IMG/VR virus record: IMGVR_UViG_3300035208_005614
Span: 1-64,000 of that record
Strand: one strand, 5' to 3'
Source of the DNA: a virus
Taxonomy: Duplodnaviria; Heunggongvirae; Uroviricota; Caudoviricetes
Length of the DNA stretch: 64,000 nucleotides
In this document: positions 24,168 to 43,148 of the stretch, piece after piece
Position numbering within the stretch: position 1 is the stretch's first letter
Layout of the letters: the number at the start of each line of letters is the position of its first letter
The notes under the pieces: generated by a model
What the model was told of the DNA's origin: nothing
The model's input: the letters and a program-made list of their open reading frames with translations, nothing else
The model's database searches: none
Position numbers and translations under genes: made by a program

Positions 24168-24231
24168 TACAACAAGGTCGATGTTCATGTTATAAGTTAA
24201 ATTATTAAAGTTAAATTAATTAAAAAAAGTT

Positions 24232-24879: not shown

Positions 24880-24905
24880 TTAATTAGTTTTTATAACTAG
24901 CGACT

Positions 24906-26798: not shown

Positions 26799-26826
26799 AA
26801 ACTAAGAAGTCTAAATAATTAAAAAC

Positions 26827-27111
26827 ATGCCAGACAACAATGTAATAAAATCAATCGTAACAAATACATGTCCACACTGTGGAAAGGAGATTTATATTGA
26901 AAGCCAAATGACTCCTCCAGTGATTAATTCTGTATATACAGCAGAAGCTGTCGCTAAAGCAAAACAAGATTGTATTGAAAGAATTGGGACTTTGGCAATT
27001 GATGATGAAAAAAAGGTCGTAGTAATTAAGTGGTTAAATGATCCTGAGACTATATTTGGACCAAATGAAGTTGAAAGTATAATCTTGAGCTTATTGAAAC
27101 CGCAAGAATAA
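26827..27111 (+). CDS. Hypothetical protein
   Basis: 94-aa ORF with a CPHCGKEIY motif. Confidence 0.4.
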   Translation: MPDNNVIKSIVTNTCPHCGKEIYIESQMTPPVINSVYTAEAVAKAKQDCIERIGTLAIDDEKKVVVIKWLNDPETIFGPNEVESIILSLLKPQE

Positions 27112-27112
27112 A

Positions 27113-27394
27113 ATGAAAGTAAATGAATTGATGTTTTCTTTTTTAACAGAACATAAGGAAGCGAGGGAAAGAAAAAATAAGAACCGATGTATAGCTTATG
27201 TGGTTTCTAGGATGCACCCTTCCTCAGATATTAAAATAGAATTATTAGAGGATATGGTAGGAGAAATCTTAACCATGGATCGAGCTTGGAGAAAGACGTT
27301 AGAAGATAATTCAAATTTGAGAGGAACTGATTATAAAGAGAAGGAAAGATTAGAGAAAAAAGTACAAAAAGATTTGGGATATCCAGTAAAATAA
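27113..27394 (+). CDS. Hypothetical protein
   Basis: 93-aa ORF. Confidence 0.4.
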   Translation: MKVNELMFSFLTEHKEARERKNKNRCIAYVVSRMHPSSDIKIELLEDMVGEILTMDRAWRKTLEDNSNLRGTDYKEKERLEKKVQKDLGYPVK

Positions 27395-27407
27395 ATTATA
27401 AACTAAA

Positions 27408-29519
27408 ATGATATTATTAAATGAAATTACAATTAAAAACTTCCTTTCTCACGAGGACACAACAATTCATTTCAATGAAAATGAGAAACTTTTGGTTGAT
27501 GGTAAGAGCGGTAGTGGTAAATCTTCCATCACAGAAGCTAATCTCTGGGTTCTCTACGGCAAAGGTAGAACCGACAATCGTTCCCTTGTTAGAAAAGGGA
27601 CAAAAAGCGCATCTGTCTCTCTTAAACTTGATGATGGACCAGTCTCAACGATCATCACACGTACTGTTTCCAGCGCAGGAAAAAATGTACTTACAGTTAC
27701 TCAAAGGAAAGGGAAAGATAAGTATCTTCCGATCGAGAGGACTGGGCTTAAGGACATGCAGGACTTTATTGAAAGAGAATACCTCAAAGCCTCTTACGAA
27801 CTCTTCACGAATAGCGTTGCGTACCCTCAAGAAAATGAAAATTCCTTTGTCAAAGCAACTGCCTCTAAAAGAAAAGATCTCCTCCTCGAAATAGTTCGAG
27901 CAGGTAATTTTGATGAGTTATATGAGAAAGCGCGCAAAGCACTTAATGCAAATGAAACAGGTGTCTCTAACGAAATGGTTAGAATCACTTTCTTAGAGAA
28001 TTCAATCAAAAATTCAGAGATTATAGCTTCAAAATACGACTCTCATAAAGAAGCCTATGATATGACTACAAAACAAGTTGAAGAAGAAGAGAAGATAGAA
28101 AAATCTTTAGAGGGGCAATTAAACAACGTTTCTCAGATATCAAAGATGATTACTAGTGAAACGAATACAAAAAATCTTCTAGAAAAGACTCTTAATAGTT
28201 CGAACACACAATTACAACTTTGTCAAAAAACTATCAAAGATCATGAAACTTTTGATATAAGTATCCATTATAAAAATGTAGAAGAAATTGGAGTATTTTC
28301 TAAAGAAGCAGACAAGATTGAACAAATTCTTTTTGAAAATTCAAAAGCACAACAACATATTAATGAACACATGTCAAATAGACCGAGTGTTTTTGATTAC
28401 AAAAAAGACATTGAGGACATTAATAAAAGTCTTATATCTTTAATGAAAGAAATGGGTAAATGCCCAGCGGGAGATAATTGTCCTTTTCTAGTTCCAGTAA
28501 AGGGTCAAATAGACTTCCTTTCAGGACAACTAGTTGAGAAAGCAGACAAATCAGTGGCTGAACAAGAGGCTTTTGAGAAATGGGAAGCTAGAGGTAAGAC
28601 TCTTACTCCCATAACGGACACTACAGATTTATATAATAAACTAAAGGACATTCGATCTAAAATCGAGGTGCTTTCTAAATCAAAAGATGTCATTACCCAG
28701 TACGAATTAGTCAAAAATAGTATCGGAGATTATAAGACAAAAGAGATCTCTTTAAACATAGAAATTGATCAAACTCGCATGGAAATCATTAAAATTGAAA
28801 AAGGTATCAGAGAATTAAATGAAGACCTTGTCAAGTATGATAGTAATAAAATAAACACCGAATTATCAACGATAAGAGTATTAAAGAGAAAAGCTCAGAT
28901 AGAGGTGGAAAATAGTGCCTCTGGAATGGCCATGGCTACAAATGCCCAAAAGGATATTAAGGAGGCCTCTACAGCCCTAAAAACAGCCTTAGCTGGGGTT
29001 TCTAAAGCTAATGAAGACAAGGAATCACTTGAATTAATTAAAGAAGCTTTTAGCCCTCGTGGAGTTAAGGCGGTTATCATTGATTACTTGGTTCCTCAGT
29101 TGGAGGAAAGAATAAACGGTATTCTTAAACAGATGTCTGATTTTAGAATAAGACTCGACACCCAGAAGGCTCTGGTTGATGATGAGGGCGTAAAAGAGGG
29201 CTTATTCATTACGGTTATAAATGATCACGGAGAGGAGTTACCATTCCAGTCATATTCGGGCGGGGAGAAAGTTAAGATCACTGTAGCAATTTCTGAAGCA
29301 CTAGCTTCCTTGATGAGCCAAGTAGGTTTTAGAATTATGGATGAGAATATAGTCAGTTTAGATAGAGATAGCACGGAAGGTTTCGTTAAGGTCCTTACGA
29401 ATCTTCAAGAGAAGTTTCCTCAGTTGCTTGTAATCTCGCACCTTCAGGAAGTTAAAGATATTTTTGAGAAGAAGATTACAATTATTAAAGCAAATGGTAT
29501 AAGCAAAATTTATGAATAA
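27408..29519 (+). CDS. sbcC: SbcC/Rad50-family ATPase
   Basis: N-terminal Walker A GKSGSGKSS, central zinc-hook-like CPAGDNCPF, C-terminal signature YSGGEKVK and D-loop ENIVSLDRDS. Long central coiled coil. Confidence 0.8.
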   Translation: MILLNEITIKNFLSHEDTTIHFNENEKLLVDGKSGSGKSSITEANLWVLYGKGRTDNRSLVRKGTKSASVSLKLDDGPVSTIITRTVSSAGKNVLTVTQRKGKDKYLPIERTGLKDMQDFIEREYLKASYELFTNSVAYPQENENSFVKATASKRKDLLLEIVRAGNFDELYEKARKALNANETGVSNEMVRITFLENSIKNSEIIASKYDSHKEAYDMTTKQVEEEEKIEKSLEGQLNNVSQISKMITSETNTKNLLEKTLNSSNTQLQLCQKTIKDHETFDISIHYKNVEEIGVFSKEADKIEQILFENSKAQQHINEHMSNRPSVFDYKKDIEDINKSLISLMKEMGKCPAGDNCPFLVPVKGQIDFLSGQLVEKADKSVAEQEAFEKWEARGKTLTPITDTTDLYNKLKDIRSKIEVLSKSKDVITQYELVKNSIGDYKTKEISLNIEIDQTRMEIIKIEKGIRELNEDLVKYDSNKINTELSTIRVLKRKAQIEVENSASGMAMATNAQKDIKEASTALKTALAGVSKANEDKESLELIKEAFSPRGVKAVIIDYLVPQLEERINGILKQMSDFRIRLDTQKALVDDEGVKEGLFITVINDHGEELPFQSYSGGEKVKITVAISEALASLMSQVGFRIMDENIVSLDRDSTEGFVKVLTNLQEKFPQLLVISHLQEVKDIFEKKITIIKANGISKIYE

Positions 29520-29955
29520 TATAGAAAAGAAAAAACAGATTAGAGAAATAAATAAAAGAACCATCAGAAGAATGAGAAGTGAGGGTAAGAGTCTTTATGA
29601 GATTTCATTACATGTTAATCTAACTTGTGAAAGAGTTCGCCAGATAGAGAGAGACGTACTTAAATTACCTGTAAGGGGGCATAAGAAAGCAAAGAGAATA
29701 CAAAGAAAGTGTGGTAATCCAAACTGTTCAAACATAATGACGGTAAAAGAAAATGATCATAGACAAAATTGTAGCAAGAAATGTTACTTGGAAGTGATGC
29801 CTCATAAGACACCTGAACAAAAAAGAATTGAACACAATGCAAGAATCCTTAAGTATTATCACGAAAATTTGAAACATGATCCTAAGTTTATAAGGAAAAA
29901 AAAAATTAGAAACAAAAGAGCGGCTGAAAAAGCAAGAGCTTTAAAAAACAAATAA
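29512..29955 (+). CDS. Sigma-70 region-4-like HTH protein with a C-terminal Cys cluster
   Basis: LTCERVRQIERDVLKKL is typical of sigma-factor region 4. Followed by CGNPNCS...CSKKC. 147 aa. Confidence 0.55.
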   Translation: MNNIEKKKQIREINKRTIRRMRSEGKSLYEISLHVNLTCERVRQIERDVLKLPVRGHKKAKRIQRKCGNPNCSNIMTVKENDHRQNCSKKCYLEVMPHKTPEQKRIEHNARILKYYHENLKHDPKFIRKKKIRNKRAAEKARALKNK

Positions 29956-29956
29956 T

Positions 29957-30490
29957 ATGGAATCAACAGAACAAACAGTAAGTACACATACTAAAGGAGA
30001 AATTGAGGCACAAAAATACCTTAAACGCCTTGTTGCGCCCCACACAAAAGTAAGTAAAGAAGTTACAAATAAGGATCTAGATAAGGTAGTGGAAGAAGTT
30101 AAGATATTATATAACTTGTGCTATGTACAAAACGGGTTATATCTAGGAGCATATGCTATGCATCACTCACAGATCGAAGATAAAGATCCTATGAGTTTCT
30201 TTGTTATTGCAGATAAAAGAATCATTATAAACCCAAAGATAGTTAAACATAGTAATTATACCAAAGACTCTAAGGAACAATGTATGTCTTTTGCGAATGA
30301 AGGTCCAGTTGTTGTTCAGAGATGGCAAAAGATAGAACTTGAATATCAAACTATAATGACTGACCCAGAACATGATGGCAAATTTAAATTATCTGATATA
30401 ATTAAGGAATCATTAAGTGGTTTTGAAGCGTTTGTTATGCAACATGAAATCGATCATGGTAATGCAAAGTTTATTTATCAATTAAAATAA
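29957..30490 (+). CDS. def: Peptide deformylase-like protein
   Basis: Motif 3 QHEIDHGN (QHExDHxxG), motif 2-like EQCMSF (EGCLS) and a weaker motif 1 GLYLGAYAM. 177 aa. Confidence 0.6.
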   Translation: MESTEQTVSTHTKGEIEAQKYLKRLVAPHTKVSKEVTNKDLDKVVEEVKILYNLCYVQNGLYLGAYAMHHSQIEDKDPMSFFVIADKRIIINPKIVKHSNYTKDSKEQCMSFANEGPVVVQRWQKIELEYQTIMTDPEHDGKFKLSDIIKESLSGFEAFVMQHEIDHGNAKFIYQLK

Positions 30491-30494
30491 AAAT

Positions 30495-30716
30495 ATGGAA
30501 AAAGAAGAGAAAAAAGAAAAAACAGTTTATACTCTAGGATTGCATGAATCCATGGAGATTAAGACTGATCTAGGAGGTAAGGTAGAAATAACAAGAGTCC
30601 CAGGAGGATGGGTTTATTGTTTTGAATATCCTGGCTTTAGACAAAGCCCTATTCTATTTGTACCATTTGATAATGAGTATCAAGTAATTACTAAAATTAA
30701 AACTAAAAAAGACTAA
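30495..30716 (+). CDS. Hypothetical protein
   Basis: 73-aa ORF. Confidence 0.4.
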   Translation: MEKEEKKEKTVYTLGLHESMEIKTDLGGKVEITRVPGGWVYCFEYPGFRQSPILFVPFDNEYQVITKIKTKKD

Positions 30717-30717
30717 T

Positions 30718-31080
30718 ATGGAACAATATCAAATTTTGTATGATGCTTTTATGAGTCAATATAATAAAGGAGAAACTTCACCTTCACAAGTTGGAGAGGT
30801 ACTTGCCAGAATAGCTGGTTTGTTCCCTAATTATAACATTGTGATGATTAAAGCAGAAAAAGAGTTCGCGTTAGTACACAAGACAATAGCCGAAGGATCA
30901 GATGATACAACTGGTAAAGCTATTTCATCTTCTAAAGCAGAGGTTCTTGCTGATGCTTCACCTGAAGCTTATGCATTTAAAATTGCTAGAGGACATAAAG
31001 AGAATATCGAGATGCTTGTTGGCACATTAAAATTCCTTCAAAAGTCACTTGAAGTTGAGTACCTTAACTCAAATATATAA
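30718..31080 (+). CDS. Hypothetical protein
   Basis: 120-aa ORF. Confidence 0.4.
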   Translation: MEQYQILYDAFMSQYNKGETSPSQVGEVLARIAGLFPNYNIVMIKAEKEFALVHKTIAEGSDDTTGKAISSSKAEVLADASPEAYAFKIARGHKENIEMLVGTLKFLQKSLEVEYLNSNI

Positions 31081-31352
31081 TGAAAAATAAAAAACTAGAA
31101 GAAAGAATATTCTGTGGTCAATGTGGAAAAGAATTAGACGCATATTGGATTCCTGCAGAAGAATGTAAGATAGATGTGTGTTCATGGGGAGATTCCTACA
31201 CGACCATTCTCGGCAGACCTTATAGTACGAAAAACGGTGAGAGACAATATGGAATAAAATATATATGTCCTAAGTATAAAAAAGGTTTCCTTTCAGATAA
31301 TGGCCATGATTGTTTTATTAAAGACGAGATTTTCACTAAAAAAGATATTTAA
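31080..31352 (+). CDS. Small zinc-ribbon-like protein
   Basis: 90 aa. The sequence CGQCGKELDAYWIPAEECKIDVCSWGDSYTTILGRPYSTKNGERQYGIKYICP has C-x2-C at its start and a second CSW...ICP cluster. Confidence 0.35.
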   Translation: MKNKKLEERIFCGQCGKELDAYWIPAEECKIDVCSWGDSYTTILGRPYSTKNGERQYGIKYICPKYKKGFLSDNGHDCFIKDEIFTKKDI

Positions 31353-31650
31353 AATGAAAAAAATACCATGTGGAACATGTGGTGTTATGTTTGAACCTAA
31401 AAGCGACAGAAACAAATATCACAATAGGAGTTGCTTCAAAAAAGCATTCTGGATAAGACAAAAAGAAAAGAATAAGAAGATAGGAAACTTCCCTACTTTT
31501 AAATGTCCAAATTGCGGACAAAAAATAACGTTACCGTTTGATCCTGTTAAGGAGATAAGTAAATGGGCTAATTATTCTTGCCCAGGGTGTAATACTCTTA
31601 TGATTAATGTATCTGAAGAGATAATAACTCAAGACGAACAAGTTTTATAG
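31300..31650 (+). CDS. Zinc-ribbon protein
   Basis: CGTCG...CPNCG...CPGCN. Overlaps the previous ORF by 53 nt, so the start is uncertain. Confidence 0.4.
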   Translation: MAMIVLLKTRFSLKKIFKMKKIPCGTCGVMFEPKSDRNKYHNRSCFKKAFWIRQKEKNKKIGNFPTFKCPNCGQKITLPFDPVKEISKWANYSCPGCNTLMINVSEEIITQDEQVL

Positions 31651-31652
31651 TT

Positions 31653-34600
31653 TTATTCGTTAGCTAAAATAGGTAATCCTCTCACAGTACCCCATTTTGT
31701 TTTTACTCCTTTGATCTGTTTCTCATGAGCATTAGCTGCTTTCTTTGCTTCATCCTGCGTACTGCCTAACCATAGAGATCCATCAGAGGCGTGAACATAA
31801 AAAGTTTTACCTCCCGTTGTATCATTAAACTTTCCTGACTTCATCTCATTAAGAGCGTCTTTAATCGCTTGAAGTTTTTTGTTATCAGTTGTGTTGATTA
31901 ACCCTGCTTTTAGTTTTTGATATTCACTTTGCTTAACTTTTCCATTACTAGAAGTTGCTCCTTGTGGTGCATAAGCCTGGTATTGATATGGAGCTTGTAG
32001 AACCTTAGTTAAAGAACCTTGATACCTATCAGGATCGTTTACAGCTCTATTAATAGCTGTGTTTATAATATGTTTAGTCTCAAAAGCTTGTTTGTCGGGT
32101 CTGTTACTTACTTCTCCATAAAGAATTGCAGCAGCCTCATCTATATCGCTATCCTTTACTTTAATTCCTCTTACATCATAAGTAGGTTCTTCTTTTGCTC
32201 TAAAAGTTGTAGTCAATCCTGGAAGTAATTTTTCTTTAACATTTCCCCAAGCATTAGAAATGCCAGTCCCTATGTCATCCATAAGACCCCCCTGTCCATC
32301 TGGACCTCCCTTACCTTCTTTTACTGTTTCTACTACATTCTGTGCGCTTGGAGTAATAACTTGAGAAAACGGATCAAATGATTCAGACCCTTGGTAATAA
32401 GTATTTGCTACTTTAGGAGAAGCATCTATTAATTCTCTATAAAGATAGATAAACTTCGGTTTATTATATATTTCTGCCCAAGATATATTTGCCAACTTAT
32501 CTGTTGCTGCCCAATATGAAATATTATCTAGATCAGCTTCTGTGTAATTACCTTCTTCTAAATTCTTAAGGAAGTAATTCTCAACTCTTTGTTTTGCTTT
32601 TTCTCTTATAGTTTTTCCTTCCTTCCCTGGGTTTGTTTGATATTCTAATTTAGCTTTTTTAGCAATACTAATAATATCCTTTAATTTTGAATTATTAGGA
32701 TTGTATTTATCTTTAAATGCTTGAGAAACAGCTTTTGCTCCTTCTTTGTGTATAATAACTTTTTGTTCTCCAGTAACATCATAAGACTTTAATTTTGAAG
32801 CAGCGAGTGTCTTTTCTTGTAATGGAGTTAATACAGTTCCTGCTTTTTTAAGGTTATTGTAATATTCGATAGTAGGAGCTAAACCTGTTTGTTTGATTCT
32901 TTGATTAGTTTTAGCATCTACTTTGCCTAGGAAAATATCATTAACTGTGTTTGCAGTCTCTCCAAGCGCTTTAATACCATAAGGTTTTTGTATATTTTTA
33001 AGAGCCCCAGTTAATGAAATTGGGTTAAGCGTTTCTCCACTATTAACGCTCCAAAGTTCTTTAGTAGCCCAGTTAGGATCGTCATTTGTTCTTTTAAGAA
33101 TATCGTCAGATTTCTTTGAGTCTACAGCTTCTCTTTGCGCCTGAGAAATCAATTGTCTTTCTTTTGTTCCCCATTTTGGAGTTGCAGTAAAATCCTCCTT
33201 AGAATTATAAGTAGTTCCTTTTTCTACAACATTGCCGTTAGAAAGTATTTCGTACTGACTGTATTTTTTAGGATCAGATTCTCCATAAACCTTGATAGTA
33301 ATATTATTATCTTTTACCTCATCCATAATACGTGAAGCCATGGAAATCATACTTGTTTGGTCATCTCCAACAAGTTGATTTTTTATAACTTTTTTAATAG
33401 TTTTATTTGTAGCAAGTTCAGGTGTGGATGATTTAACTTCAGTAAATGGAGTAGCTAGAGATCCTCTTTTAACGATAGCATCGACTTCGGCTTGTGACAT
33501 CCCACCTTCGCCTATTTTAGTTACGTGCATAGTATCAGCATCTTGATCTCCTTGTAGAATAATTCTTTCATTGAATGGGCTAACAATACCGTTCTCTTCT
33601 GCGAGACTTGTGTTACCTGATTTTGTACCGTCTACAACTCTAAGAACAGCAAGGTTGTTAATATCATAAGAAGGATCTCTACTTACAACTACGTAATCAC
33701 CTTCTTTAACTCCGAGACTTTTAATTTGCTCAGATCCTAAAATTATTTCGTGGTTATTGACATATCTAGTTTTTCCTGTTCCATCATAATCAGCCTTAAT
33801 AGGAGCAACCATCGTTACCATTGTACTATTTTTATAAGTAGGGTTTATTGCATTCTCCATAACTAAATTCTTTAGTATTTTGTTTATTTCAAAATGAAGA
33901 TTGTTTTTTGCAGCACTTAATTCTCCGAAAGATAATTGTTTAGCTCCTTGGAATAGATTCTCTTTTTCTAATTGAGGATATTTTTCAACTGCTTTATCAA
34001 ATACTTCTTTAAGCTCAGCATTGCTTTTTGTTTTTGCTATATCATCTATAAGAGTCTGTAGATCTTTAACGTCCTGATTAACTTTAATAAGTTTATTTTC
34101 AGATACACCAACATCAGTACTTAAGAATTTTCTTTCTCCAGAAGGAGATATTTTACTAACACTTCCTGTAGTTGATCTGTCTTTGCCATAAATATCAGAA
34201 AGAGGAAGATTAAAATCTCCGAGTTTTGGACCTATTTTAGCATTAGAATCAAAACTGATTACATCATTTTTACCAATTTCAATACCGTGAGTTTCTTTAT
34301 AACTATTTCTAATTGCCTCATCAGCTTTAATGGCCTGGCCTTTGTGATAAGATTTTTCTCCATTAAGAGTTGTATCAAGAATTATTTTAACAGATCCTTT
34401 ATGTCTATTTTTATCATAACCTAAACCTTCTATAAGTTTGTCAAAAGCATCCTCTCCAAGGATAAAAGGACCGTCTTGTGTCTTACCTCCGTGAAATGAT
34501 TCTACAGAAGCTTTTGCTTCTACCCCCTCTGGATTTTCAAACTTACTTGTATCTATTTTAAATTCTGGTGTATCACCTATAGTTTCAGCTTTAAGTGTTC

Positions 34601-37600
34601 TTAGTCTTGCTGTCTGTTCAGGACCTAGGTACTGATCATATCTATGAAAAATAAGATTAGCTCTTTTAACAAAATCTACATCTTTAATATTTTTAGGCAT
34701 TCCAAGAACATCTACCATGTAGACTCTTGTAAATTTATCTTCTGGAGTAGTCAAAGTTTCGCCTTCGTTCTGATATTTTGTAGGATTTTGATCATACTTT
34801 TCAACCATCTTAGGTTCCATCTTGACAAAGACAGTATTTTCTATTCCTTTACCTGTAATTCCAATTGGAACAAAACTTTTATTTCTCATTTCATCTGTCA
34901 AAGTATTTAAAGCATTGCTACTTTTTTTAACGTAAGATTTGTCTCCTCCTGAATAATCGTTATCCTTTCCAACATGAACCACCTCCATTGAGTTCTCTGG
35001 AAGTCCATTAGCTTTATTAAAATCTTTTGTAAGTAAATCAATCTTTCCTACATTTTGTGTTCCACCTTCTTTAAGTTGCGCTTTACCGTCAGAAATAATA
35101 ATCTCATTTCTTGCTCCTGAACTTGCAAGTGTAGTATAAAGATTCTTAAGATCTCTCAAATCTCTCTTATCTGATATTTCAAAGGCATCATTTCCACTAG
35201 CTGTTTTAATTTTTTGTGTGAAATCGTTTAAGAAAGTTGGCCATCCATCAATAATCCCTTGTCTTGTTTCTCCGTTACCAGATACTGACTTAGCAACTTC
35301 AGTTAATTTAGCGCGTGTGAAATCACTTCTCTTTTTAGGATCTGAAATTTCTTTAAGAGCAACTTCGTTGATTCCTTCCTTTCCTCTTCCTGTTTGTTTA
35401 AATTGTCCAGGATCAGCTCTTTCAGGGGCTTTTTCTATAGTGTCTAGAGCGCTTTGTACGTTAGTTTCAGCAACGGGTAGTGTATTCGCTTCATTAAGTG
35501 TTTTAGACATCTCCTGTGCCGTTTTTGGGGCTTCTGTAGGCTTAATTATAGGCAATTCAGCATCAGAAAGTGACTTAAATGATGTATCTGTAGTTTTAGG
35601 CGCCACTTTAGCTTTTTTGATCATGTCAATAAGTCTCTGACTCATTCCTTGTTTCTTCAATTGTGCAATCTCTTCTGGGGTAACTTCTGGTGTAACATTA
35701 GAAACTGGTAACGGTCCTTTTTTACTTCTTTCCATATAAGAAATCTGATCAGAAGTAAAACCTTGTTTTTTTAATGACTGTACTTCCTCTTCAGTAAATT
35801 CTTTAAGTGGAGTAGAAACTTTTTCTTGAATATTACTTATAGCACTAGACACCTGTTTTTTAATAGGTTCAAATGATTTACCTTTAAATGCAATACTTTC
35901 TGCCCAATTCTCGGGTTTAATATTGACAGCCAAGAAATATTCTCCTGACTTATTGCTTTTAGTTAGTTTAGATTGGTTAGCAGTTAGAACAGATAAACCG
36001 TTGTCTCTCATTGCTTGAGCAATTTTTGAGTTATTTAAATTTGAATCAAATTTTTGAAGAGGATTTTCTGCCTTGATTCTAGTAAGAAGAGTTTTGTTAT
36101 CTATTTTTGATAAATTTTCTGCGAATAAAATATTTGCTTCTTCTTGAGTTAATGAAGGTTTAGATTGATCTTTAAGAAGATTATCATAAAATTCTTGAGG
36201 TGTTTTTGACGCCTTTCTTATTTGTCTGATTCTATTCATCATTGATCTGAAATTCTCGTTGAAGTTGAATTTTCTTGTATCAATTCTTTCTCCTGTAGAT
36301 GCGTAACCAACTTCTCTTATTTGTCTTCCATTAGGTGTTTCTGCAATATAAAAAGTTCTGATTGTATCCTCGGGTTTAGCAATAGGAGCAGGTCTACCTT
36401 GAGATAACTCAGCGAAGTTTATAACCCTTGACACTCTTTCATTTTTTGGATCTAATACAAAGTAAAGTTGGTCAGAGTGTTGTTCTCCTTTTACTCCTTT
36501 ATCATAAGCCCCTATATTAATACTATTTTTTGCACTTATTCCTTTTGCGTTTCCAGTTATTGGAATATCTCCTGTAGGTAAGTTACTTAAATCTGCAGTT
36601 ATTTCAGGAGCAGGTTGTATATCAAGAGGAACTGAATTTAATATATCTGAATAATCTCCAGCAGGTTCTGGTCTTAAATTATTTTTAGATGGAGAAATTT
36701 TACTCTTCATTTGAGTAACTAAAGATTGAAGATCTTGAATTTCTTTTTGTTCTCTTGCACTAGGTTTGATATTTGGATCTGTTGTGACTCCATATGTCTG
36801 TGTTCCAGGATCTAATGTTCTGTTATAAAGTTGGTTTCCTGCTGTGCCGAAACCTAGAAGTTCTGCGTCTATATCTTCTTGAGAAAAATCATTACCTGAA
36901 GCGCGAGCTTCTGATATAATTTTTCCATATCTATTTATTGCTACTCTAGTTATTAACTGTGTGACATCCTCCTGAGTTTGAATTGGCATTCTAGAAATAC
37001 TTGGATCGTTTGGATTTTCTTTAAGAAATTGCTGTCTAAAGTTTTCTGCCGTAGGTATATCATATTTAGTTTGAGCGATAGGAGTTTCTCCTTTCATAAC
37101 TGCAGGAACTAATTCAGGAACAACAGAATTCATTCTTGCTGATGCCATTTTGAATGCTTGATCTGAAGCGATTGTCTTTAATCCTTGATTTACACCAAGA
37201 GTTGCACCCCCTGCTTCGAATTTACCTGGAGCCCCCATCATGTGAAGAGCCGACATTAAAGCTCCTTGTTTAAGAGCTTCTTGTATTGAATTTTCTTTAT
37301 TACCACCAAGAATAAGAGAAAGAGTAGTTGCACTTAATCCAACTCCGAGATATCCCTTGATGCTTTGTCCATATCCTGCTGTAAGTCCTCCGAATGCAGC
37401 ATCTGAGAAGAATTGACTCATGTGAGCTCCCAAATCTGCTTCTTCTTGACCAGTTAATTGCCTTCCAGTTTGTCCTATTTGTCCCCACGTTCCTAGAAGA
37501 CCCGCACCTTTAAGCATTTCTGCTGCTTGTTTTTTCCAAGCGATATTTCCTACTGTTTCTGTCCCAGCGTCTATTATTGCTTTCTTTGTTACGAGACCTG

Positions 37601-38825
37601 CAGTATCCATAGCTCCTTCAGCCATAGTAACGGCTTTTGCTGCATTAACAGCTCCTCCGAAAATTCCATCATATTCAAGAATTGGAACGGCCGCTGCTTT
37701 TGCTGCGCCTCCCATAAGACCAAGAGCTCCGAGTCCTTTCCCAACTAAACCTATACCTGTCATCATACCGACGATATTACCAGCTAAGTTAGTTACTTTT
37801 CCGAGGGTTCCAGATGATTCACTTGCTCCTGTTCCAGGGGCAATTCCTGCAGTAGCTCCTCCGACTAATCCTTTTGCAAACTCTCTAATTGGATCTGGCA
37901 ACCATCCTTCTCCGAATTGATCCATATTTTCTTTGAATGATTCTCCGAAATATTTCAATGCTCTTTTATCAAAAATTCCTACAGGTTTGCTAATTGCATC
38001 CTTCCATTGTTGTGCATATTTTTCTGCGACTTTAGTATCTAAATAACCTTTGTCATTAACTAGATTAATATCTGGAGCATCATCAACGTTTGTTTTCCAG
38101 TTTAAAGCCATCGCTTTTGCTTCGCTCTGAGTTATTTTTCCATTAGCAAGCAATGTTAAAGGAACTGCTTGTATAGCAGTTTTTTTGTCGTGAGATACAT
38201 TATCAAAAACTTCAAGATTTTTTAGTGTGTCTGCTCCACCTGCCCATAAAGGGACGATGTGGTCTACTTGGAATAAAGCAGGAGACAAATTACCGAGAAC
38301 TTGCTGTTTAACTCCTGGATTTATTTTATTATCCATGATTACACGATCAGATTTAATTAGTTTTCCAGGTTGAGTTGGATCAACAACATATTGTCCTCCC
38401 CCCATTGAGAGAGGAAGATTTCTAGCGACAACGGCAGATGATGGTGTAACCCAATTACCATTTGCATCTGGAGCAGTAAATTGACTATATCCTTCAGGTA
38501 AAGATTCTGTTGGAGTAAAAGTTGATGGAGCTACATAACCTGGAGCATAAGGAACAACTGGTGTCGGTTCTTTAAAAGCTTCTGTTATAGGAACTCCTAT
38601 AGGAAAATTATAATCAGTTGGAGCTTTTGTTGTTTTCGTTTTTCCTGTACCAAAAATAGCACCATAATCTGATACATTAAAGTGTGAATCTAGAGATCCT
38701 TTTACCACACTTGACGAAGTCTTCTGTGCGTTTTGTTGTAATTGTTTAGTTAAACCAGAAAGATTCGCAATTGATGGTTGCGAGCTAGGAGTACCATATT
38801 GCGTATTTTCAGGTAAATTAGCCAT
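31653..38825 (-). CDS. Giant tape-measure-like virion protein (2390 aa) with an N-terminal HNH-like motif and a C-terminal SleB-type cell-wall hydrolase domain
   Basis: Gly/Ala-rich hydrophobic tracts (GIGLVGKGLGALGLMGGAAKAAA...) as in tape-measure proteins. DHIVPLWAGGADTLKNLEV...H fits an HNH nuclease motif near residues 185-225. The C-terminus NRAVNDPDRYQGSLTKVLQAPYQYQAY...FYVHA resembles the Hydrolase_2 (SleB/CwlJ) domain. Confidence 0.65.
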   Translation of the reverse strand: MANLPENTQYGTPSSQPSIANLSGLTKQLQQNAQKTSSSVVKGSLDSHFNVSDYGAIFGTGKTKTTKAPTDYNFPIGVPITEAFKEPTPVVPYAPGYVAPSTFTPTESLPEGYSQFTAPDANGNWVTPSSAVVARNLPLSMGGGQYVVDPTQPGKLIKSDRVIMDNKINPGVKQQVLGNLSPALFQVDHIVPLWAGGADTLKNLEVFDNVSHDKKTAIQAVPLTLLANGKITQSEAKAMALNWKTNVDDAPDINLVNDKGYLDTKVAEKYAQQWKDAISKPVGIFDKRALKYFGESFKENMDQFGEGWLPDPIREFAKGLVGGATAGIAPGTGASESSGTLGKVTNLAGNIVGMMTGIGLVGKGLGALGLMGGAAKAAAVPILEYDGIFGGAVNAAKAVTMAEGAMDTAGLVTKKAIIDAGTETVGNIAWKKQAAEMLKGAGLLGTWGQIGQTGRQLTGQEEADLGAHMSQFFSDAAFGGLTAGYGQSIKGYLGVGLSATTLSLILGGNKENSIQEALKQGALMSALHMMGAPGKFEAGGATLGVNQGLKTIASDQAFKMASARMNSVVPELVPAVMKGETPIAQTKYDIPTAENFRQQFLKENPNDPSISRMPIQTQEDVTQLITRVAINRYGKIISEARASGNDFSQEDIDAELLGFGTAGNQLYNRTLDPGTQTYGVTTDPNIKPSAREQKEIQDLQSLVTQMKSKISPSKNNLRPEPAGDYSDILNSVPLDIQPAPEITADLSNLPTGDIPITGNAKGISAKNSINIGAYDKGVKGEQHSDQLYFVLDPKNERVSRVINFAELSQGRPAPIAKPEDTIRTFYIAETPNGRQIREVGYASTGERIDTRKFNFNENFRSMMNRIRQIRKASKTPQEFYDNLLKDQSKPSLTQEEANILFAENLSKIDNKTLLTRIKAENPLQKFDSNLNNSKIAQAMRDNGLSVLTANQSKLTKSNKSGEYFLAVNIKPENWAESIAFKGKSFEPIKKQVSSAISNIQEKVSTPLKEFTEEEVQSLKKQGFTSDQISYMERSKKGPLPVSNVTPEVTPEEIAQLKKQGMSQRLIDMIKKAKVAPKTTDTSFKSLSDAELPIIKPTEAPKTAQEMSKTLNEANTLPVAETNVQSALDTIEKAPERADPGQFKQTGRGKEGINEVALKEISDPKKRSDFTRAKLTEVAKSVSGNGETRQGIIDGWPTFLNDFTQKIKTASGNDAFEISDKRDLRDLKNLYTTLASSGARNEIIISDGKAQLKEGGTQNVGKIDLLTKDFNKANGLPENSMEVVHVGKDNDYSGGDKSYVKKSSNALNTLTDEMRNKSFVPIGITGKGIENTVFVKMEPKMVEKYDQNPTKYQNEGETLTTPEDKFTRVYMVDVLGMPKNIKDVDFVKRANLIFHRYDQYLGPEQTARLRTLKAETIGDTPEFKIDTSKFENPEGVEAKASVESFHGGKTQDGPFILGEDAFDKLIEGLGYDKNRHKGSVKIILDTTLNGEKSYHKGQAIKADEAIRNSYKETHGIEIGKNDVISFDSNAKIGPKLGDFNLPLSDIYGKDRSTTGSVSKISPSGERKFLSTDVGVSENKLIKVNQDVKDLQTLIDDIAKTKSNAELKEVFDKAVEKYPQLEKENLFQGAKQLSFGELSAAKNNLHFEINKILKNLVMENAINPTYKNSTMVTMVAPIKADYDGTGKTRYVNNHEIILGSEQIKSLGVKEGDYVVVSRDPSYDINNLAVLRVVDGTKSGNTSLAEENGIVSPFNERIILQGDQDADTMHVTKIGEGGMSQAEVDAIVKRGSLATPFTEVKSSTPELATNKTIKKVIKNQLVGDDQTSMISMASRIMDEVKDNNITIKVYGESDPKKYSQYEILSNGNVVEKGTTYNSKEDFTATPKWGTKERQLISQAQREAVDSKKSDDILKRTNDDPNWATKELWSVNSGETLNPISLTGALKNIQKPYGIKALGETANTVNDIFLGKVDAKTNQRIKQTGLAPTIEYYNNLKKAGTVLTPLQEKTLAASKLKSYDVTGEQKVIIHKEGAKAVSQAFKDKYNPNNSKLKDIISIAKKAKLEYQTNPGKEGKTIREKAKQRVENYFLKNLEEGNYTEADLDNISYWAATDKLANISWAEIYNKPKFIYLYRELIDASPKVANTYYQGSESFDPFSQVITPSAQNVVETVKEGKGGPDGQGGLMDDIGTGISNAWGNVKEKLLPGLTTTFRAKEEPTYDVRGIKVKDSDIDEAAAILYGEVSNRPDKQAFETKHIINTAINRAVNDPDRYQGSLTKVLQAPYQYQAYAPQGATSSNGKVKQSEYQKLKAGLINTTDNKKLQAIKDALNEMKSGKFNDTTGGKTFYVHASDGSLWLGSTQDEAKKAANAHEKQIKGVKTKWGTVRGLPILANE

Positions 38826-38835: not shown

Positions 38836-40863
38836 TTAAGATGTAGGAGCATTAGAGATAGTAGAAGCTATAGCGTCTGCATTTTCTTGATCGGTTCCTT
38901 TAAATAATTGAGAATATATTGCGTTAGCTGGTTGTCCAAGTGAAGCATAACTTTTTGCTGTAAGATTGATAGAATTATAAAGATCATTTAAGAAGTCGGT
39001 TCCTAAAGCACTATATTGTTTCATCCACTTTTCTTTAGTAGATGTATCTGTAAGAGCTGAAGCTGATTTACCTATACCTAAGAAACCTCCGTGTGGATTT
39101 ACCAGATCATTTACAGCATTTTTAACAGTACTTATTTTACCGAGAACGAAACCTGAAAGAGAATTACTTATACTTCCAAATAATTGGTTTTGAAGAGTTG
39201 TTCCCCATGTTTCACTTTCTGTATAACCAGAGTTTGTCAAATCGTCAATCAGGCCTTTAACTTGTTTAACTACTTTTGGATCGTTACCACTATTCTTAAG
39301 AGTATTTACTAGACCTCTTCTGATTGTTTCTGTCAAGGCTCTCATATCTCCTTGTTCAATAGCAACCTGTGCATATAAACCAGCTAGACCTTCTGTTCCA
39401 ACCCTTGTCATATCAAGAGATCCTCCATCTGTAGCTGTTGCTGATTCTGGTTGTAACCACTGTTTAGAATATGTATCTATATCTTTAAGATAATCTGCAT
39501 TACTTGTTATTTGGCCATCAGAAACTCCAAGAACAGATGAACTGTTTCCATAAAGTTGTTGTTTAAGTAAGGCAAGATTGTATGCTTTTGTAGGAGCATT
39601 TTCTAGTTCTGTATAAGCACTACTCATCCTAGTCAAGAGATTATTATATTCGTTCTGTGCCATTGTTCCTTGTCTCGTTAATGCATCACTATAATCTTTA
39701 TAGATATTATCGTAATTAGATTGTGCTCTTGTAACATCAGCATTGTAATCAGCTACAGCAGAATTTAAGAAATTACCATAACGGGTATTTTGTCTTCCTT
39801 TAAGTGTGTAAAGATAATTTAATTGTCTGTTATACGCATTCAAATCAGCAGGATCACTTAAGTCTTTTGTTGTAGCTTGATTTTCTGTTTGTTCAATCAT
39901 GCTATCAATAAATTTAAGATATTGATCTTTTCCTCTGATATAGTTTTGTAAAGTTGGAACTAAGTTTGTACCTTCTGCTTTCAAATCACTAAGTGATTGT
40001 TCCAAAGGTTCTAGATTAAAATCTTTTTTAAGTTTAGCATCTAAGTTAGTTATATACTGGTCTAAACCTCCTCCGAATTTCGCGTCTGCATAATCCATAG
40101 CAAAGGCTGTTGCTCCTTCTCCTGAAGCGACTGCTTTTGCGACATCTGCATTTCCTCCTGTTGGAGGCGTGTATGTTGTATCAACTGGAGTACTTGATGA
40201 TGAAGAAGATTCACCGCTTACACCGCTAACTGCTGGTGCATTGCTTGTATCTGTTTTTGTTCCTCCAGAATTTAATGCATTTTTTACTGATTCAGGTAAG
40301 TTATTAATATCTAATCCCGTTTTAGTATCAGTTGCAACTACAGGTGCTTTTATATTTGTTTGAGGTGTAGTATCAGACATAGATGTTGTATCTATTTTTG
40401 TCGGTGTATTAACCCCAAAAGATGACAAAGGTTTCGGTGTATAAGGTGTTGATATCTGTCCTAATGAAGCATAACTTTTTGCTGGAGTTTCTACTGTAGA
40501 AGGTTTCCAAGAACTACTTACTGAAGCCAAATCTTTTTGCCAATCTGGAGTTGTTGTACTAGGAGCGGGCGTTGCACTAGATGAAGTTGTTTTAAAATTA
40601 GGAAGAGCTGGGAAAACCATTAAATTACTGAAATCGGGAGCTGTATAAGGAGTAGAAGCAAGAGTAGACTGAACTCCTCCTTTGCCGTCTTGAGTATTGA
40701 CACCACCCACTTTTTTCATTATAGAAAGAATTGACTTTGCTTGTTCTCTTTTTGTACTACCTATAGGAGAAGACATCGCTTCTTTGAAAGTTCTTGAAAG
40801 TTTTGGATTCGACATGATCGAATGAAATAACTCGTTCTTCTTTTTTATGTTGTCGTTTTGCAT
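38836..40863 (-). CDS. Ser/Thr-rich structural protein
   Basis: 675-aa ORF in the tail cluster with long S/T/P-rich low-complexity segments. Confidence 0.5.
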   Translation of the reverse strand: MQNDNIKKKNELFHSIMSNPKLSRTFKEAMSSPIGSTKREQAKSILSIMKKVGGVNTQDGKGGVQSTLASTPYTAPDFSNLMVFPALPNFKTTSSSATPAPSTTTPDWQKDLASVSSSWKPSTVETPAKSYASLGQISTPYTPKPLSSFGVNTPTKIDTTSMSDTTPQTNIKAPVVATDTKTGLDINNLPESVKNALNSGGTKTDTSNAPAVSGVSGESSSSSSTPVDTTYTPPTGGNADVAKAVASGEGATAFAMDYADAKFGGGLDQYITNLDAKLKKDFNLEPLEQSLSDLKAEGTNLVPTLQNYIRGKDQYLKFIDSMIEQTENQATTKDLSDPADLNAYNRQLNYLYTLKGRQNTRYGNFLNSAVADYNADVTRAQSNYDNIYKDYSDALTRQGTMAQNEYNNLLTRMSSAYTELENAPTKAYNLALLKQQLYGNSSSVLGVSDGQITSNADYLKDIDTYSKQWLQPESATATDGGSLDMTRVGTEGLAGLYAQVAIEQGDMRALTETIRRGLVNTLKNSGNDPKVVKQVKGLIDDLTNSGYTESETWGTTLQNQLFGSISNSLSGFVLGKISTVKNAVNDLVNPHGGFLGIGKSASALTDTSTKEKWMKQYSALGTDFLNDLYNSINLTAKSYASLGQPANAIYSQLFKGTDQENADAIASTISNAPTS

Positions 40864-40864: not shown

Positions 40865-41278
40865 TTAAAATTTTTTTATATAAGACATCGGGTTCTTCCA
40901 TTTACCAAATGCGCTTGCTATTCGTATATCTAAGTGTGTTGGATCTCCTCCAGATGGACTATATGAGTTTCCAGTAGCGCCCATCTTAGCAATTGGTTGT
41001 CCTTTTTTTACCACCTGTCCTGGCTTTACATTTGCTCCTTGTAAGTGTCCGTATTGATGCACATTTCCTCCTGTATCTTTAAGTGTAACAACATTACCCA
41101 TTCCGTTTGTCGTTGGCCCTACAGACGTAACTTGTCCATCAGCAAAAGCAGGAACTGGTGTTCCAGGGGTATTTGCGATATCTACACCAGGGTGCACAGC
41201 TTCACCTCTTGTCTTTCCCATAAAAGGTGTTGTAATTTTTCCTGGTATTTTAAGTTTTGTTGTTTTTTGTTGATTCAT
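40865..41278 (-). CDS. M23-family peptidase (LytM-like)
   Basis: HPGVDI (HxxxD) and PTHLDIRIA (HxH-like) motifs. 137 aa. Confidence 0.7.
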   Translation of the reverse strand: MNQQKTTKLKIPGKITTPFMGKTRGEAVHPGVDIANTPGTPVPAFADGQVTSVGPTTNGMGNVVTLKDTGGNVHQYGHLQGANVKPGQVVKKGQPIAKMGATGNSYSPSGGDPTHLDIRIASAFGKWKNPMSYIKKF

Positions 41279-41282: not shown

Positions 41283-43148
41283 TTAATAACCTCTTAATTT
41301 GGTTAGAAGTTGAGTATTTTGTGTTGCCGATCCTGTATATCCAGTGATGCCGTTTTTCGCTGCTAATGCTGCTCTTGAAGAATATGAAGAATCTCCTCCC
41401 GTACTTGTGAGATAATCAACAATAGAAGATCCTTGATATCCTGTTTTTGCTGGAGTTGATGTTTTAACAGGAGTATAAGGGCTTGAAATTACTCCTAATG
41501 GAGATGAATTTGCTGGAGTTTGTGTTGTTTTTGGAATAGTAGATTTGGTTGTATCGGACATTGAAGTATCTACTGTAGTTATAGGATTATATGAATTTAA
41601 CAAAGACGGAGTTGTTGAAGGTAGAGGAATTGAAGGAGTTGTTGTTTTGGCTGGAGTTTGAATCGTAGAAGGAGTAGAGGTAGGCATTGGAGTTGATATT
41701 TGACCTAAAGGAGAAGAATTCGCTGGAGTAGGGGTTGAAGATCCAGAATTTAATTTATTTGAAATTGCGGCGGCGGCTGTAGAAGCTGCTTTTGTTGGAG
41801 AAGAAACTCCCATAACAGATCCTGAACTTGTAGAAACATTTGTATTTGTAGAAGCAGGAGTTGTTGTGTCTGGAGTACTTGTTTTTGTTAATCCAGTGTC
41901 TGTTGGACTTGAACCTGTATCTGTAGGTTTGTCAAGAACATTATTTGGATCTCCATAAGCTCTTTGTTCATCTGTTAAAGCTTTTTGTGTAACTAGAGTT
42001 TCAGCTGCATCTTTTGCTGACTTAGCGTTTGCTGCTATACCTGTATAATATTTAGTATAAATAGCACTTCTAAGATTACCGTTTTCATCAAGAATAGAAT
42101 CATGATATGCCTGGATTTGTGCGTCTGTCATATCAGGATATTTAGCTTTAAGATTAGCAACACTATAAGTATCGGCTACATCAGCAGATGGTTTAAGTAA
42201 GATAGATCTAAATTTAGATGGATCTACTCCAGCCGCAGTATCCTCTGCATCCATTTTAGCAATTGCTGTTTTTATGTCAGAAGGTGAGCCTGAAGCCAAA
42301 AGAACTTGTATTTCTTTATTATTAGCGTCAGTAACTCTTTGTTCTCTTGCTCTTTGATCATTAAGTCTTAATGTTTTTAGATAATTATCTATAGCTTCGT
42401 TCTGTAAACCACTTCCTGCTAATCCTTGAGTTTTATAAGAATCTTCTAATGTATTGATTTGTTTCCAAGCAGTTGCGGCATCATCACTTAATTTAATACC
42501 GAAGTTAACTTCAACTTGTTTTTTCCATTCATTATAATTGTAATCTGCAGAAGCTTTTTCTTGTTCACTTGTAGCTTCTAATTGAGAATTTGCTAAGTCA
42601 TAAAAAGAAGATTTTATATTTGCTACCGCATCTTTAAAAGTTTGTGATGAAGGATCTAATATAGGAACTAACATTTTAAAAGTATCTTCGTCCATATCTG
42701 CTCCGTATTTAAGAATCGCTGGATCCATTATTCCCGCAAGATTAAAAGTTGGAATAACTGTAGAAGCAGTTAATTTTGCCTGTTGTCCTTCAGCCGTTGC
42801 TGCATATTGGGTTCTTTCAAGGTCAGGATCTATTATTTTAAGACTCTTTGCAGAGGTGTTGCCTTGGGATTCCAATTCTCTTCTTTTCATATCATTCAAA
42901 ACATCCCCAATCGTATATCCTCCATAAGTTAAGGCATTAACATAAAAAGCGACTACATCTGGTTTAGATGCAATTAAGTTATTTAAAAAGCTTGAATTTA
43001 TAAGATTTGAACTTGTAGCAGAAGAAACAATAGATTTTTCTATTGCTGTGCTTCTGTCTTCTAGTGACTTATTTTGGTTATAACCATAGTAAGGAGTAGA
43101 AGAAGTTGGTGCTGATTCAAGACCTGTATTAAATAAATTTTCTGCCAT
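41283..43148 (-). CDS. Ser/Thr/Pro-rich structural protein
   Basis: 621-aa ORF with a C-terminal S/T/P low-complexity half. Confidence 0.5.
   Translation of the reverse strand: MAENLFNTGLESAPTSSTPYYGYNQNKSLEDRSTAIEKSIVSSATSSNLINSSFLNNLIASKPDVVAFYVNALTYGGYTIGDVLNDMKRRELESQGNTSAKSLKIIDPDLERTQYAATAEGQQAKLTASTVIPTFNLAGIMDPAILKYGADMDEDTFKMLVPILDPSSQTFKDAVANIKSSFYDLANSQLEATSEQEKASADYNYNEWKKQVEVNFGIKLSDDAATAWKQINTLEDSYKTQGLAGSGLQNEAIDNYLKTLRLNDQRAREQRVTDANNKEIQVLLASGSPSDIKTAIAKMDAEDTAAGVDPSKFRSILLKPSADVADTYSVANLKAKYPDMTDAQIQAYHDSILDENGNLRSAIYTKYYTGIAANAKSAKDAAETLVTQKALTDEQRAYGDPNNVLDKPTDTGSSPTDTGLTKTSTPDTTTPASTNTNVSTSSGSVMGVSSPTKAASTAAAAISNKLNSGSSTPTPANSSPLGQISTPMPTSTPSTIQTPAKTTTPSIPLPSTTPSLLNSYNPITTVDTSMSDTTKSTIPKTTQTPANSSPLGVISSPYTPVKTSTPAKTGYQGSSIVDYLTSTGGDSSYSSRAALAAKNGITGYTGSATQNTQLLTKLRGY

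Follow-up and report, generated by a model that had tools for sequence, protein, structure and literature searches.

A modular giant phage protein with HNH-like, two-barrel RNA polymerase-like and SleB-like modules, probably ejected at infection

What kind of protein is a polypeptide of 2390 residues encoded by the last gene of a phage structural operon, at the point where this operon runs into the replication genes? We address this question for an uncultivated virus of the class Caudoviricetes, of which a stretch of 64,000 nucleotides was analyzed (positions 1 to 64,000 of IMG/VR record IMGVR_UViG_3300035208_005614; hereafter, the window). The gene lies on the minus strand at 31653..38825. 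A first reading, made from the letters alone (hereafter, the sequence-only reading), had labeled the product tape-measure-like and ascribed three activities to it: a peptidoglycan hydrolase, a channel-former and a possible DNase or DNA-binding module. Our analysis leads to a different picture. We consider it probable that the product is an ejection or 'pilot' protein, housed inside the virion and built of modules: a chassis with an HNH module and membrane segments carries an RNA polymerase payload, followed by a junction and a SleB-type domain. The phage itself, whose genome measures about 100 kb, probably has a short tail.

As that reading had stated, the gene is a single unbroken open reading frame (ORF) with an ATG start. 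Since the ORF is this long and the DNA has a G+C content of about 33%, a chance origin is impossible. Nor is the ORF a local artefact, because public metagenomes hold a 100% identical protein (P0001; three sources), encoded on a contig of 101,237 bp. The claim that only 2 nucleotides separate it from a convergent gene also proved exact: its TAA stop codon occupies 31653-31655, and the plus-strand ORF 31300..31650 ends with TAG at 31648-31650. A terminator between the two genes was ruled out, 2 nucleotides being too short, and none was found nearby either. A search of 5.8 billion proteins returned 57 homologues of 1445-2698 residues, many of them from contigs of 86-112 kb. The protein and its parts are as follows.

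31653..38825, minus strand: the whole ORF, 2390 residues, final gene of the structural operon; 100% identical to P0001
38451..38825, minus strand: N-terminal leader, residues 1-125, with a conserved MANL..N..Y start; defined by conservation among the 57 homologues
38163..38279, minus strand: HNH (beta-beta-alpha-metal) core, residues 183-221, with D188, H189, N203, H212 and K215 and without zinc-binding Cys; defined by Pfam, PHROG and family-profile matches
37236..37874, minus strand: Gly/Ala-rich hydrophobic region, residues 318-530, with two to three weakly hydrophobic candidate membrane segments (343-385, 488-509); defined by hydropathy and composition
35439..37235, minus strand: remainder of the conserved N-terminal module, residues 531-1129; BLAST alignment in most homologues, no family match
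32334..35438, minus strand: single-chain two-barrel RNA-polymerase-like module, residues 1130-2164
34194..34496, minus strand: putative first (beta-like) double-psi beta-barrel, residues about 1444-1544; model secondary structure and invariant columns
33501..33836, minus strand: putative second (beta-prime-like) double-psi beta-barrel, residues about 1664-1775, with invariant R1716-x-P1718; conservation and hhalign
33534..33548, minus strand: DQDAD, a DxDxD metal-binding motif, residues 1760-1764, followed by the beta-strand TMHVTKI; conservation and hhalign
32277..32315, minus strand: junction motif GKGGPDGQGGL, residues 2171-2183, ahead of the appended C-terminal module; motif census
31674..32198, minus strand: SleB/Hydrolase_2-type lytic-transglycosylase-like domain, residues 2210-2384, with invariant E2238 in 'YGE'

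The largest functional module is one that the sequence-only reading had overlooked in its three-activity account. Judged by its structural model, the region of residues ~1130-2165 looks like a two-barrel RNA polymerase of the kind represented by QDE-1, crAss gp66 and P23-45 gp96, with an intact DxDxD site. In an alignment of 11 sequences of this module (17-44% identity), R1716, P1718, D1760, D1762 and D1764 are invariant, as is R1832, and a second invariant set (D1451, G1452, K1480, K1495, D1521, N1528, K1530 and G1532) lies about 250 residues upstream. A scan of the homologues for DxDxD revealed one conserved site with R-x-P ahead of it, which reads SRDPSYDINNLAVLRVV...GDQDADTMHV in the query and RYPTL...NSADTMKFDHDTDGDT in other homologues. 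The same pattern, R-x-P and DxDxD spaced by 25-60 residues, was found in 72 of 80 further matches. When a profile of the module was searched against 1.84 billion representatives, it retrieved 95 clusters at E<=1e-10, nearly all in proteins of 2000-2969 residues. Five weak matches from outside the family, which have no Pfam domains, likewise bear R-x-P...D-x-DGD. Two of the weakest matches were cadherin-repeat proteins and were discarded as Asp-rich noise.

The AlphaFold model, which is of medium confidence, shows two barrel-like units of strands and helices, at module residues 325-412 and 538-642, and a helical stretch of about 120 residues that separates them (connecting helices at 447-531). 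The same layout of two barrels plus a helical connector has been described for QDE-1 and gp66 (bioRxiv 10.1101/2020.03.07.982082). A Foldseek search with the model against PDB gave single-chain two-barrel RNA polymerases exclusively among the 17 best matches, in alignments of about 1100 columns: QDE-1 (E=2e-7), RDR2 (4e-6 and 9e-6) and phi14:2 gp66 (6.5e-6). At the level of sequence profiles, hhalign placed the catalytic barrel on residues 722-794 of P23-45 gp96, with DQDAD over DFDGD 779-783 (KLGLKEGDIAFTFRNP...DFDGD in gp96 and SLGVKEGDYVVVSRDP...DQDAD in the target; E=0.0065, 71 columns). This marginal pairwise match makes gp96 the sole known RNA polymerase with a sequence-profile match to the catalytic barrel of the target.

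Could the middle module consist of double-psi beta-barrels and yet be no polymerase? It might instead bind or cleave the wall, as a domain of the RlpA, MltA or expansin type, or be an inactive structural relic, in which case the whole protein would serve for penetration only and carry an HNH module besides, close to the earlier view. The medium confidence of the model and the failure of profile searches to detect an RNA polymerase in PDB speak for this explanation. Nevertheless, we regard it as very unlikely. The invariant R-x-P ... DxDxD followed by a beta-strand is a specific signature of beta-prime-type barrels that is absent from RlpA and expansins, and the arrangement of two barrels with some 120 residues of helical connector in between is shared with QDE-1 and gp66. 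Moreover, Foldseek aligned the entire 1041-residue module with whole chains of QDE-1, RDR2 and gp66 at E<=2e-5, and no non-polymerase scored above E=3e-3. The module is thus best described as a putative polymerase, and we would expect it to synthesize RNA.

The second module of interest lies near the N-terminus. The string DHIVPLWAGGADTLKNLEVFDNVSHDKK, which the sequence-only reading had singled out as an HNH nuclease core lacking the zinc-binding Cys residues, is located at residues 188-215 (nucleotides about 38181-38264) and forms part of the best-conserved stretch in a family of 57 or more proteins. Single sequences match HNH weakly in Pfam (E=0.008-0.06), and two PHROG HNH families also give weak matches (E=4e-4). 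In contrast to the sub-threshold Pfam scores of single sequences, a family profile (34 sequences, residues 125-330) searched against PDB was positive: the 17 top-scoring of 19 matches were all HNH nucleases, including Cas8f-HNH (E=1.9e-6), ZRANB3 (2e-5), McrA (2.7e-3), the HNH domains of Cas9 (0.04-0.14) and Pyocin AP41 (0.13). In the 34 sequences H189, N203 and K215 are invariant and D188 is at least 90% conserved. The position of the catalytic His, in a D/H-H dipeptide where the first strand ends, is occupied by H189, and the dipeptide aligns with the HH of Cas8f-HNH. The conserved Asn of the fold corresponds to the invariant N203, and at the downstream position of the metal ligand in the helix, H212 is present in at least 60% of the 57 sequences, with mostly Asn elsewhere. 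The missing zinc-binding Cys residues are common to the target and its best solved match, the Cas8f-HNH core. Because the profile matches solved HNH nucleases, H189, N203 and K215 are invariant and the stretch is the most conserved of all, the assignment of a Cys-less HNH nuclease fold is supported, and the module may well possess nuclease activity.

At the opposite end, the Hydrolase_2-like domain proposed by the sequence-only reading was upheld, although its Pfam score stays below threshold. The last 160 residues contain the quoted strings (NRAVNDPDRYQGSL, QAPYQYQAY and FYVHA), and in fold the domain corresponds to the SleB catalytic domain. Weak Hydrolase_2 matches are found in 12 of 16 family members (best E=9e-4). 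A search with the C-terminal profile against PDB sequences returned chance matches alone and did not detect SleB. An invariant Glu (E2238 of 'YGE') precedes an invariant 'NR' by about 21 residues, a spacing that presumably agrees with the SleB consensus. A catalytic glutamate is essential in SleB (PMC12331253). We would predict hydrolase activity for this domain.

Between the putative polymerase and the putative hydrolase lies a junction. Of 123 long family members, 21 have the motif (K)DGxGGP(Y)DGxGG(L), at a distance of 180-500 residues from the C-terminus and before whichever accessory domain comes next. Besides the query, its bearers include P0003, P0011, P0027, P0030 and P0032, and P0030 has two copies. 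The junction may function as a hinge or be a site of processing.

The Gly/Ala-rich tracts exist, but not in the middle of the protein, where the sequence-only reading had placed them. They are restricted to residues ~318-530, where Gly and Ala make up 34-39% of residues compared with 7-23% in the rest of the protein; the true middle (~1130-2165) is, according to the model, mixed alpha/beta and globular. Kyte-Doolittle hydropathy reaches at least 1.0 in 19-residue windows solely at 343-385 and 488-509. Among the homologues this region is partly conserved.

How are these modules distributed in the family? Residues ~1-535 align in all 57 homologues; in most of them the BLAST alignment extends to ~1000, and in about ten it ends near 535. 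Beyond the shared N-terminal part, BLAST mapping of the 57 homologues distinguished middle modules of two mutually exclusive kinds: the polymerase module and a Lys-rich module of about 500 residues (module B; residues 986-1520 of P0008 and about 30 other homologues), which has no Pfam match and no DxDxD. The C-terminal module (~2170-2390) is present in 16 of the 57. Homologues have further domains toward the C-terminus: a Glucosaminidase domain (E=1.4e-8), a weakly matching SLT domain, or a histidine-phosphatase insert (His_Phos_1, E=1.7e-21). In P0003 (residues 2121-2276, encoded in L006) and P0011 this insert, an additional payload that was not expected, follows the polymerase module and precedes the SleB domain.

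A census with local hidden Markov models of the three modules covered 123 collected proteins of at least 1400 residues, a sample recruited via two different searches. It yielded the following combinations.

HNH and RNA polymerase: 63 proteins
HNH without RNA polymerase or SleB (with module B): 26 proteins
HNH and SleB: 21 proteins
HNH, RNA polymerase and SleB, the type of the query: 7 proteins
RNA polymerase alone, probably truncated: 5 proteins
No module (the cadherin false positive): 1 protein

From these counts it follows that the polymerase hardly ever occurs without fusion to the HNH chassis, whereas the chassis also occurs without the polymerase.

We next turn to the gene neighborhood. 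The right minus-strand block of the window (about 62200 down to 31653) is one operon-like run with the target gene last. Its order is SU10_adaptor, ORFs of 649, 634 and 345 residues, a peptidoglycan-binding protein, an M23 peptidase, a 675-residue ORF and the target, which is convergent with the replication genes. The members that bear on the role of the protein are listed here.

38836..40863, minus strand: 675-residue ORF, candidate companion ejection protein; position conserved (743 residues in L001, 952 residues in L006), no family match
40865..41278, minus strand: 137-residue M23 peptidase; Pfam Peptidase_M23, E=8.4e-24; synteny conserved
41283..43148, minus strand: 621-residue protein with a peptidoglycan-binding-like C-terminus; phrog_2307, E=3e-13, residues 567-620
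49204..50343, minus strand: 379-residue head-to-tail adaptor of the SU10 (short-tailed phage) type; PF24175 SU10_adaptor, E=2.4e-19, 71 bits against a cut-off of 27 bits

The local order of peptidoglycan-binding protein, M23 peptidase, protein of 743-952 residues, giant protein and convergent replication genes is kept in two relatives (L001 and L006), and the L001 counterpart of the 621-residue protein has both PG_binding_1 and LysM. The adaptor ORF is the sole recognizable head-tail structural gene. The target is the largest and last gene of the run downstream of this adaptor, the position expected of an ejection-protein gene, and from gene order only we infer that its product would be virion-associated, packaged and ejected.

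This neighborhood also bears on the label of tape measure. Under that explanation, the phage would have a long tail and the protein would be its true tape measure, with an RNA polymerase as fusion partner: the protein would reside in the tail tube, set the tail length and form the DNA channel. There is a precedent in P23-45 gp96, which combines a two-barrel RNA polymerase with membrane segments and a metallopeptidase, and tape measures typically have Gly-rich hydrophobic tracts together with a wall hydrolase. However, the SU10-type adaptor suggests a short-tailed virion, and such virions have no tape measure. In SU10, which is short-tailed, the tail consists of portal, adaptor, nozzle and needle, and the ejection proteins are inside the head (PMC9509320). 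In addition, the target matches no tape measure family in Pfam or PHROGs; the adjacent upstream genes (675 residues, M23 and 621 residues) do not resemble the small ORFs of tail chaperones; and the operon ends at the target, with no baseplate or distal-tail genes after it. A globular alpha/beta build accounts for half of the protein or more, and the lengths of family members (1445 to 2969 residues) change by swaps of whole modules, not by helical repeats. The tape-measure-like label is thus unsupported, and we consider the corresponding explanation unlikely.

Alternatively, the protein may not be packaged at all. It could be a multifunctional enzyme expressed late, such as a membrane-tethered transcription enzyme that aids lysis through its SleB domain. 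Gene order is the one basis for virion association, P23-45 and many other phages encode non-virion two-barrel RNA polymerases too, and the C-terminal hydrolase could play the part of an endolysin. Elsewhere in the window, neither a holin nor an endolysin was identified. On the other hand, the gene occupies the distal end of an adaptor-containing structural operon alongside a peptidoglycan-binding protein and an M23 peptidase, in conserved synteny, and a polymerase made only late would be unable to start an infection. The fusion of an RNA polymerase with a membrane region and a wall hydrolase suits entry rather than cytoplasmic transcription, and the swappable C-terminal wall hydrolases resemble virion-associated lysins. 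An unpackaged late enzyme is, in our judgment, quite unlikely.

For the ejected protein that we favor, four modules can be proposed. Residues 1 to ~1000 would constitute the delivery chassis shared across the family, composed of the leader, the Cys-less HNH module, the Gly/Ala-rich region, which would insert into membranes, and some 600 further residues. The payload would be the single-chain two-barrel RNA polymerase (~1130-2165), followed by the conserved GGP-DG-GG junction and the SleB-type lytic transglycosylase (~2210-2384). At infection, the protein would leave the capsid via the tail together with the peptidoglycan-binding protein, the M23 peptidase and the 675-residue protein. The SleB and M23 activities would open the wall, with the Gly-rich segments serving as a membrane anchor or passing across the membrane. 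The polymerase module would then arrive in the cytoplasm and transcribe the first phage genes, as with the virion RNA polymerases (vRNAPs) of N4 and DEV, phi14:2 gp66 and P23-45 gp96. The HNH module would act on DNA, either by cutting host DNA or by nicking or holding the incoming DNA for the polymerase. In this scheme the analysis itself provides the identities of the domains, their conservation, the census and the synteny, whereas packaging, ejection, every catalytic activity and the task of the HNH module are inferred.

A number of observations weigh against this interpretation. The polymerase model has a pTM of 0.43 and a pLDDT of 65.5, which falls below 50 in the DxDxD loop; the Foldseek alignments with QDE-1 and gp66 have low TM-scores of about 0.2 and large root-mean-square deviations. 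An hhalign comparison of the module with phi14:2 gp66 was not significant (E=0.14), and an hmmsearch of the middle-module profile against PDB sequences gave no RNA polymerase, only chance matches such as iridoid synthase (E=0.03). Gathering thresholds are missed at both ends of the protein: by HNH (PF01844), with 13.9-19.2 bits for the query and three homologues against 21.4, and by Hydrolase_2 (PF07486), with 19 bits against 27. Hydropathy in the hydrophobic segments peaks at a weak 1.55. The polymerase module is absent from about 47 of the 123 long members and therefore is not essential to the chassis. Searches of the neighboring structural-block proteins and of 10 kb beyond the window against PHROGs and Pfam revealed no capsid, portal, tube, sheath or nozzle protein, and the SU10 adaptor was the one tested protein of this block to match a known virion protein family. 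Finally, the replication genes appear to have promoters of their own. There are five perfect copies of TTGACAAGT-N13-TATACT, an extended sigma-70-type promoter in which a conserved GGAG precedes the -10 element, where 0.44 would be expected by chance:

8044-8071, minus strand
11700-11727, minus strand
16368-16395, minus strand
20828-20855, plus strand
24140-24167, plus strand

All five are in the replication/early half, upstream of genes of the replication block, and the structural operon has none. This suggests that the replication-gene class may be transcribed by a host-type sigma-70 enzyme, so that much transcription would need no phage polymerase. In crAss-like phages the host enzyme takes over past the early phase (bioRxiv 10.1101/2020.03.07.982082).

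Several known systems offer points of comparison. One of them is gp66 of the crAss-like Cellulophaga phage phi14:2 (PDB 6VR4). Like the target, gp66 is giant (2180 compared with 2390 residues), its gene is among those for large proteins with which the structural operon of a ~100-kb phage ends, and it includes an RNA polymerase of the single-chain two-barrel kind, in which a connector links the barrels and a DxDxD motif is present. The phi14:2 polymerase is one of several giant structural proteins verified by mass spectrometry. It is packaged in the virion, translocated with the DNA and transcribes the early genes (bioRxiv 10.1101/2020.03.07.982082). However, the two proteins show no detectable sequence kinship (no tblastn match; hhalign as above), their motifs differ (DFDID in gp66, DQDAD in the target), and no HNH, Gly-rich membrane region or wall hydrolase has been reported in gp66, of which some 1600 residues are without identified homologues. 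Unlike the situation in phi14:2, none of the tested ORFs of the window and its flanks matches PHROG virion structural families.

The Thermus phage P23-45 protein gp96 (PDB 8H2M/8H2N) similarly unites a two-barrel RNA polymerase, membrane segments and a peptidoglycan-degrading function in one polypeptide (bioRxiv 10.1101/2022.12.01.518664). In gp96, though, the polymerase is N-terminal in a 5002-residue tape measure of a long-tailed phage and is combined with an M23-type peptidase, whereas the target has an internal polymerase module, a SleB-type hydrolase at its C-terminus, M23 in a separate gene and an HNH module, and the adaptor suggests a short tail. N4 gp50 and gp71 of Pseudomonas phage DEV are giant three-part proteins with the polymerase in the middle, each the largest of an ejection-gene set. 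The N4 polymerase domain is T7-like, with a right-hand fold, and not two-barrel, and no HNH or lytic transglycosylase has been reported in N4-like vRNAPs. The DEV vRNAP is the gp16 equivalent and the largest ejection protein of its operon; it has been proposed to traverse the inner membrane and to project the polymerase into the cytoplasm (PMC10925440). T7 gp16 itself resembles the target in being the product of the largest and last core-protein gene, downstream of adaptor and nozzle. A lytic transglycosylase is part of gp16, which also inserts into the membrane. The T7 genes for the core proteins gp14, gp15 and gp16 come after those for adaptor and nozzle (PMC10925440). The transglycosylase of gp16 is nevertheless N-terminal and of the SLT type, and the protein has neither polymerase nor HNH. 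The best overall fold matches, QDE-1 and plant RDR2 (Foldseek E=2e-7 to 1e-5), are single-chain eukaryotic enzymes of RNA silencing with two barrels and a DxDGD-type site. They differ from the target in being cellular enzymes without delivery modules, and identity in the structural alignment is ~10-12%.

Database searches provided few clues to relatives. The whole protein had no tblastn match at 1e-5 among GenBank phages, and the uncultivated phages of ~100 kb that carry the polymerase family had none among 50,697 GenBank phage records. A scan of 185,579 species genomes for the HNH pattern found generic HNH cores only (30-80 residues), with no member of the target family and no prophage or host clue. 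When seven structural-block proteins were concatenated and compared with phages by tblastn, a small HNH homing-endonuclease ORF alone was matched; four neighboring proteins, concatenated, had no phmmer match in PDB; and the adaptor ORF gave a single weak tblastn match of no use. By these comparisons, the lineage is remote from anything in GenBank.

The remainder of the window shows further features. The plus-strand block 16980..31650 is devoted to replication and recombination (replication initiator, DnaC-like loader, primase-helicase, RecA/UvsX-like recombinase, SbcCD, RuvC and peptide deformylase), and the left minus-strand block encodes an exonuclease, GroEL and an SNF2-type helicase. Inside the replication-initiator ORF (16980-17858), positions 17321-17462 of the plus strand hold three iteron-like units of ~54 nucleotides with CACGTTC...GAACGTG inverted repeats, a candidate origin. 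Beside the peptide deformylase gene (29957-30490, plus strand), a 147-residue ORF (29512-29955, plus strand) has a weak Sigma70_r4 match (E=9e-4), and such a match is seen in L006 (19262-19693) too; the ORF may encode a phage sigma-like or anti-sigma-like factor. The GroEL-type chaperonin (8096-9751, minus strand; phrog_5725, E=1e-114) is of note for a genome that must fold proteins of 2400-2700 residues. Tandem 60-nucleotide direct repeats, 93% identical, lie at 14653-14910 (minus strand) within a 170-residue ORF (14647-15159).

The structural block contains a second giant ORF of 2680 residues (52468-60510, minus strand), which begins with a non-repetitive part and continues with dozens of ~20-residue tandem repeats (NISESVTxSNSQLGGINVYDS) with a few non-repetitive breaks. 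It has no Pfam match and a faint PHROG match, and looks like a giant fiber or adhesin. Two small ORFs downstream of it (50397-51338 and 51344-52462, minus strand) bear the same repeat. A role for the 2680-residue protein as a second polymerase was ruled out, as it has no DxDxD and is repeat-rich and fiber-like. The adaptor gene is separated from the following structural ORF by a gene (48586-49197, minus strand) for a free-standing HNH endonuclease of 203 residues. This endonuclease shares 42% identity with HNH / endonuclease VII genes from Flavobacterium podophages (E=1e-19). Probably a homing enzyme, it has no kinship with the target's HNH module. ORF 61836-62198 (minus strand) has a weak HNH match.

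What would such a protein mean for phage biology? An ejected or virion two-barrel RNA polymerase is already known, as is an ejection protein with a lytic transglycosylase; the sequence family, the four-part architecture, the near-obligate fusion of HNH and RNA polymerase and the swapping of payloads are new. To our knowledge, the ejected or virion two-barrel RNA polymerases described so far form two groups only, crAss-like gp66 and P23-45 gp96, the N4-like enzyme being T7-type. The present protein would add to them a sequence-unrelated family of ~95 clusters (at 50% identity). One polypeptide would unite penetration of the T7 gp16 type with the 'bring your own polymerase' strategy of N4 and crAss-like phages, and modules would be swapped on a conserved delivery scaffold. 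The family also carries a caution, namely that giant Gly-rich phage proteins should not be labeled tape measures by default.

A broader proposal, which we put forward tentatively, is that the family represents a general injection chassis with interchangeable payloads (RNA polymerase, the unrelated module B, histidine phosphatase, and SleB, glucosaminidase or SLT), each placed behind the junction. In the polymerase-bearing majority, the HNH module would be mechanistically coupled to transcription, for example by nicking or holding the entering DNA for a promoter-poor polymerase that prefers single strands. The purpose of the HNH module beside a polymerase is a question that the family raises in any case, and its members offer constructs for studying the passage of a large polymerase through a phage tail. 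If the proposal is true, these phages would have a new mode of launching infection, and their polymerases would be a third independent lineage of ejected two-barrel RNA polymerases.

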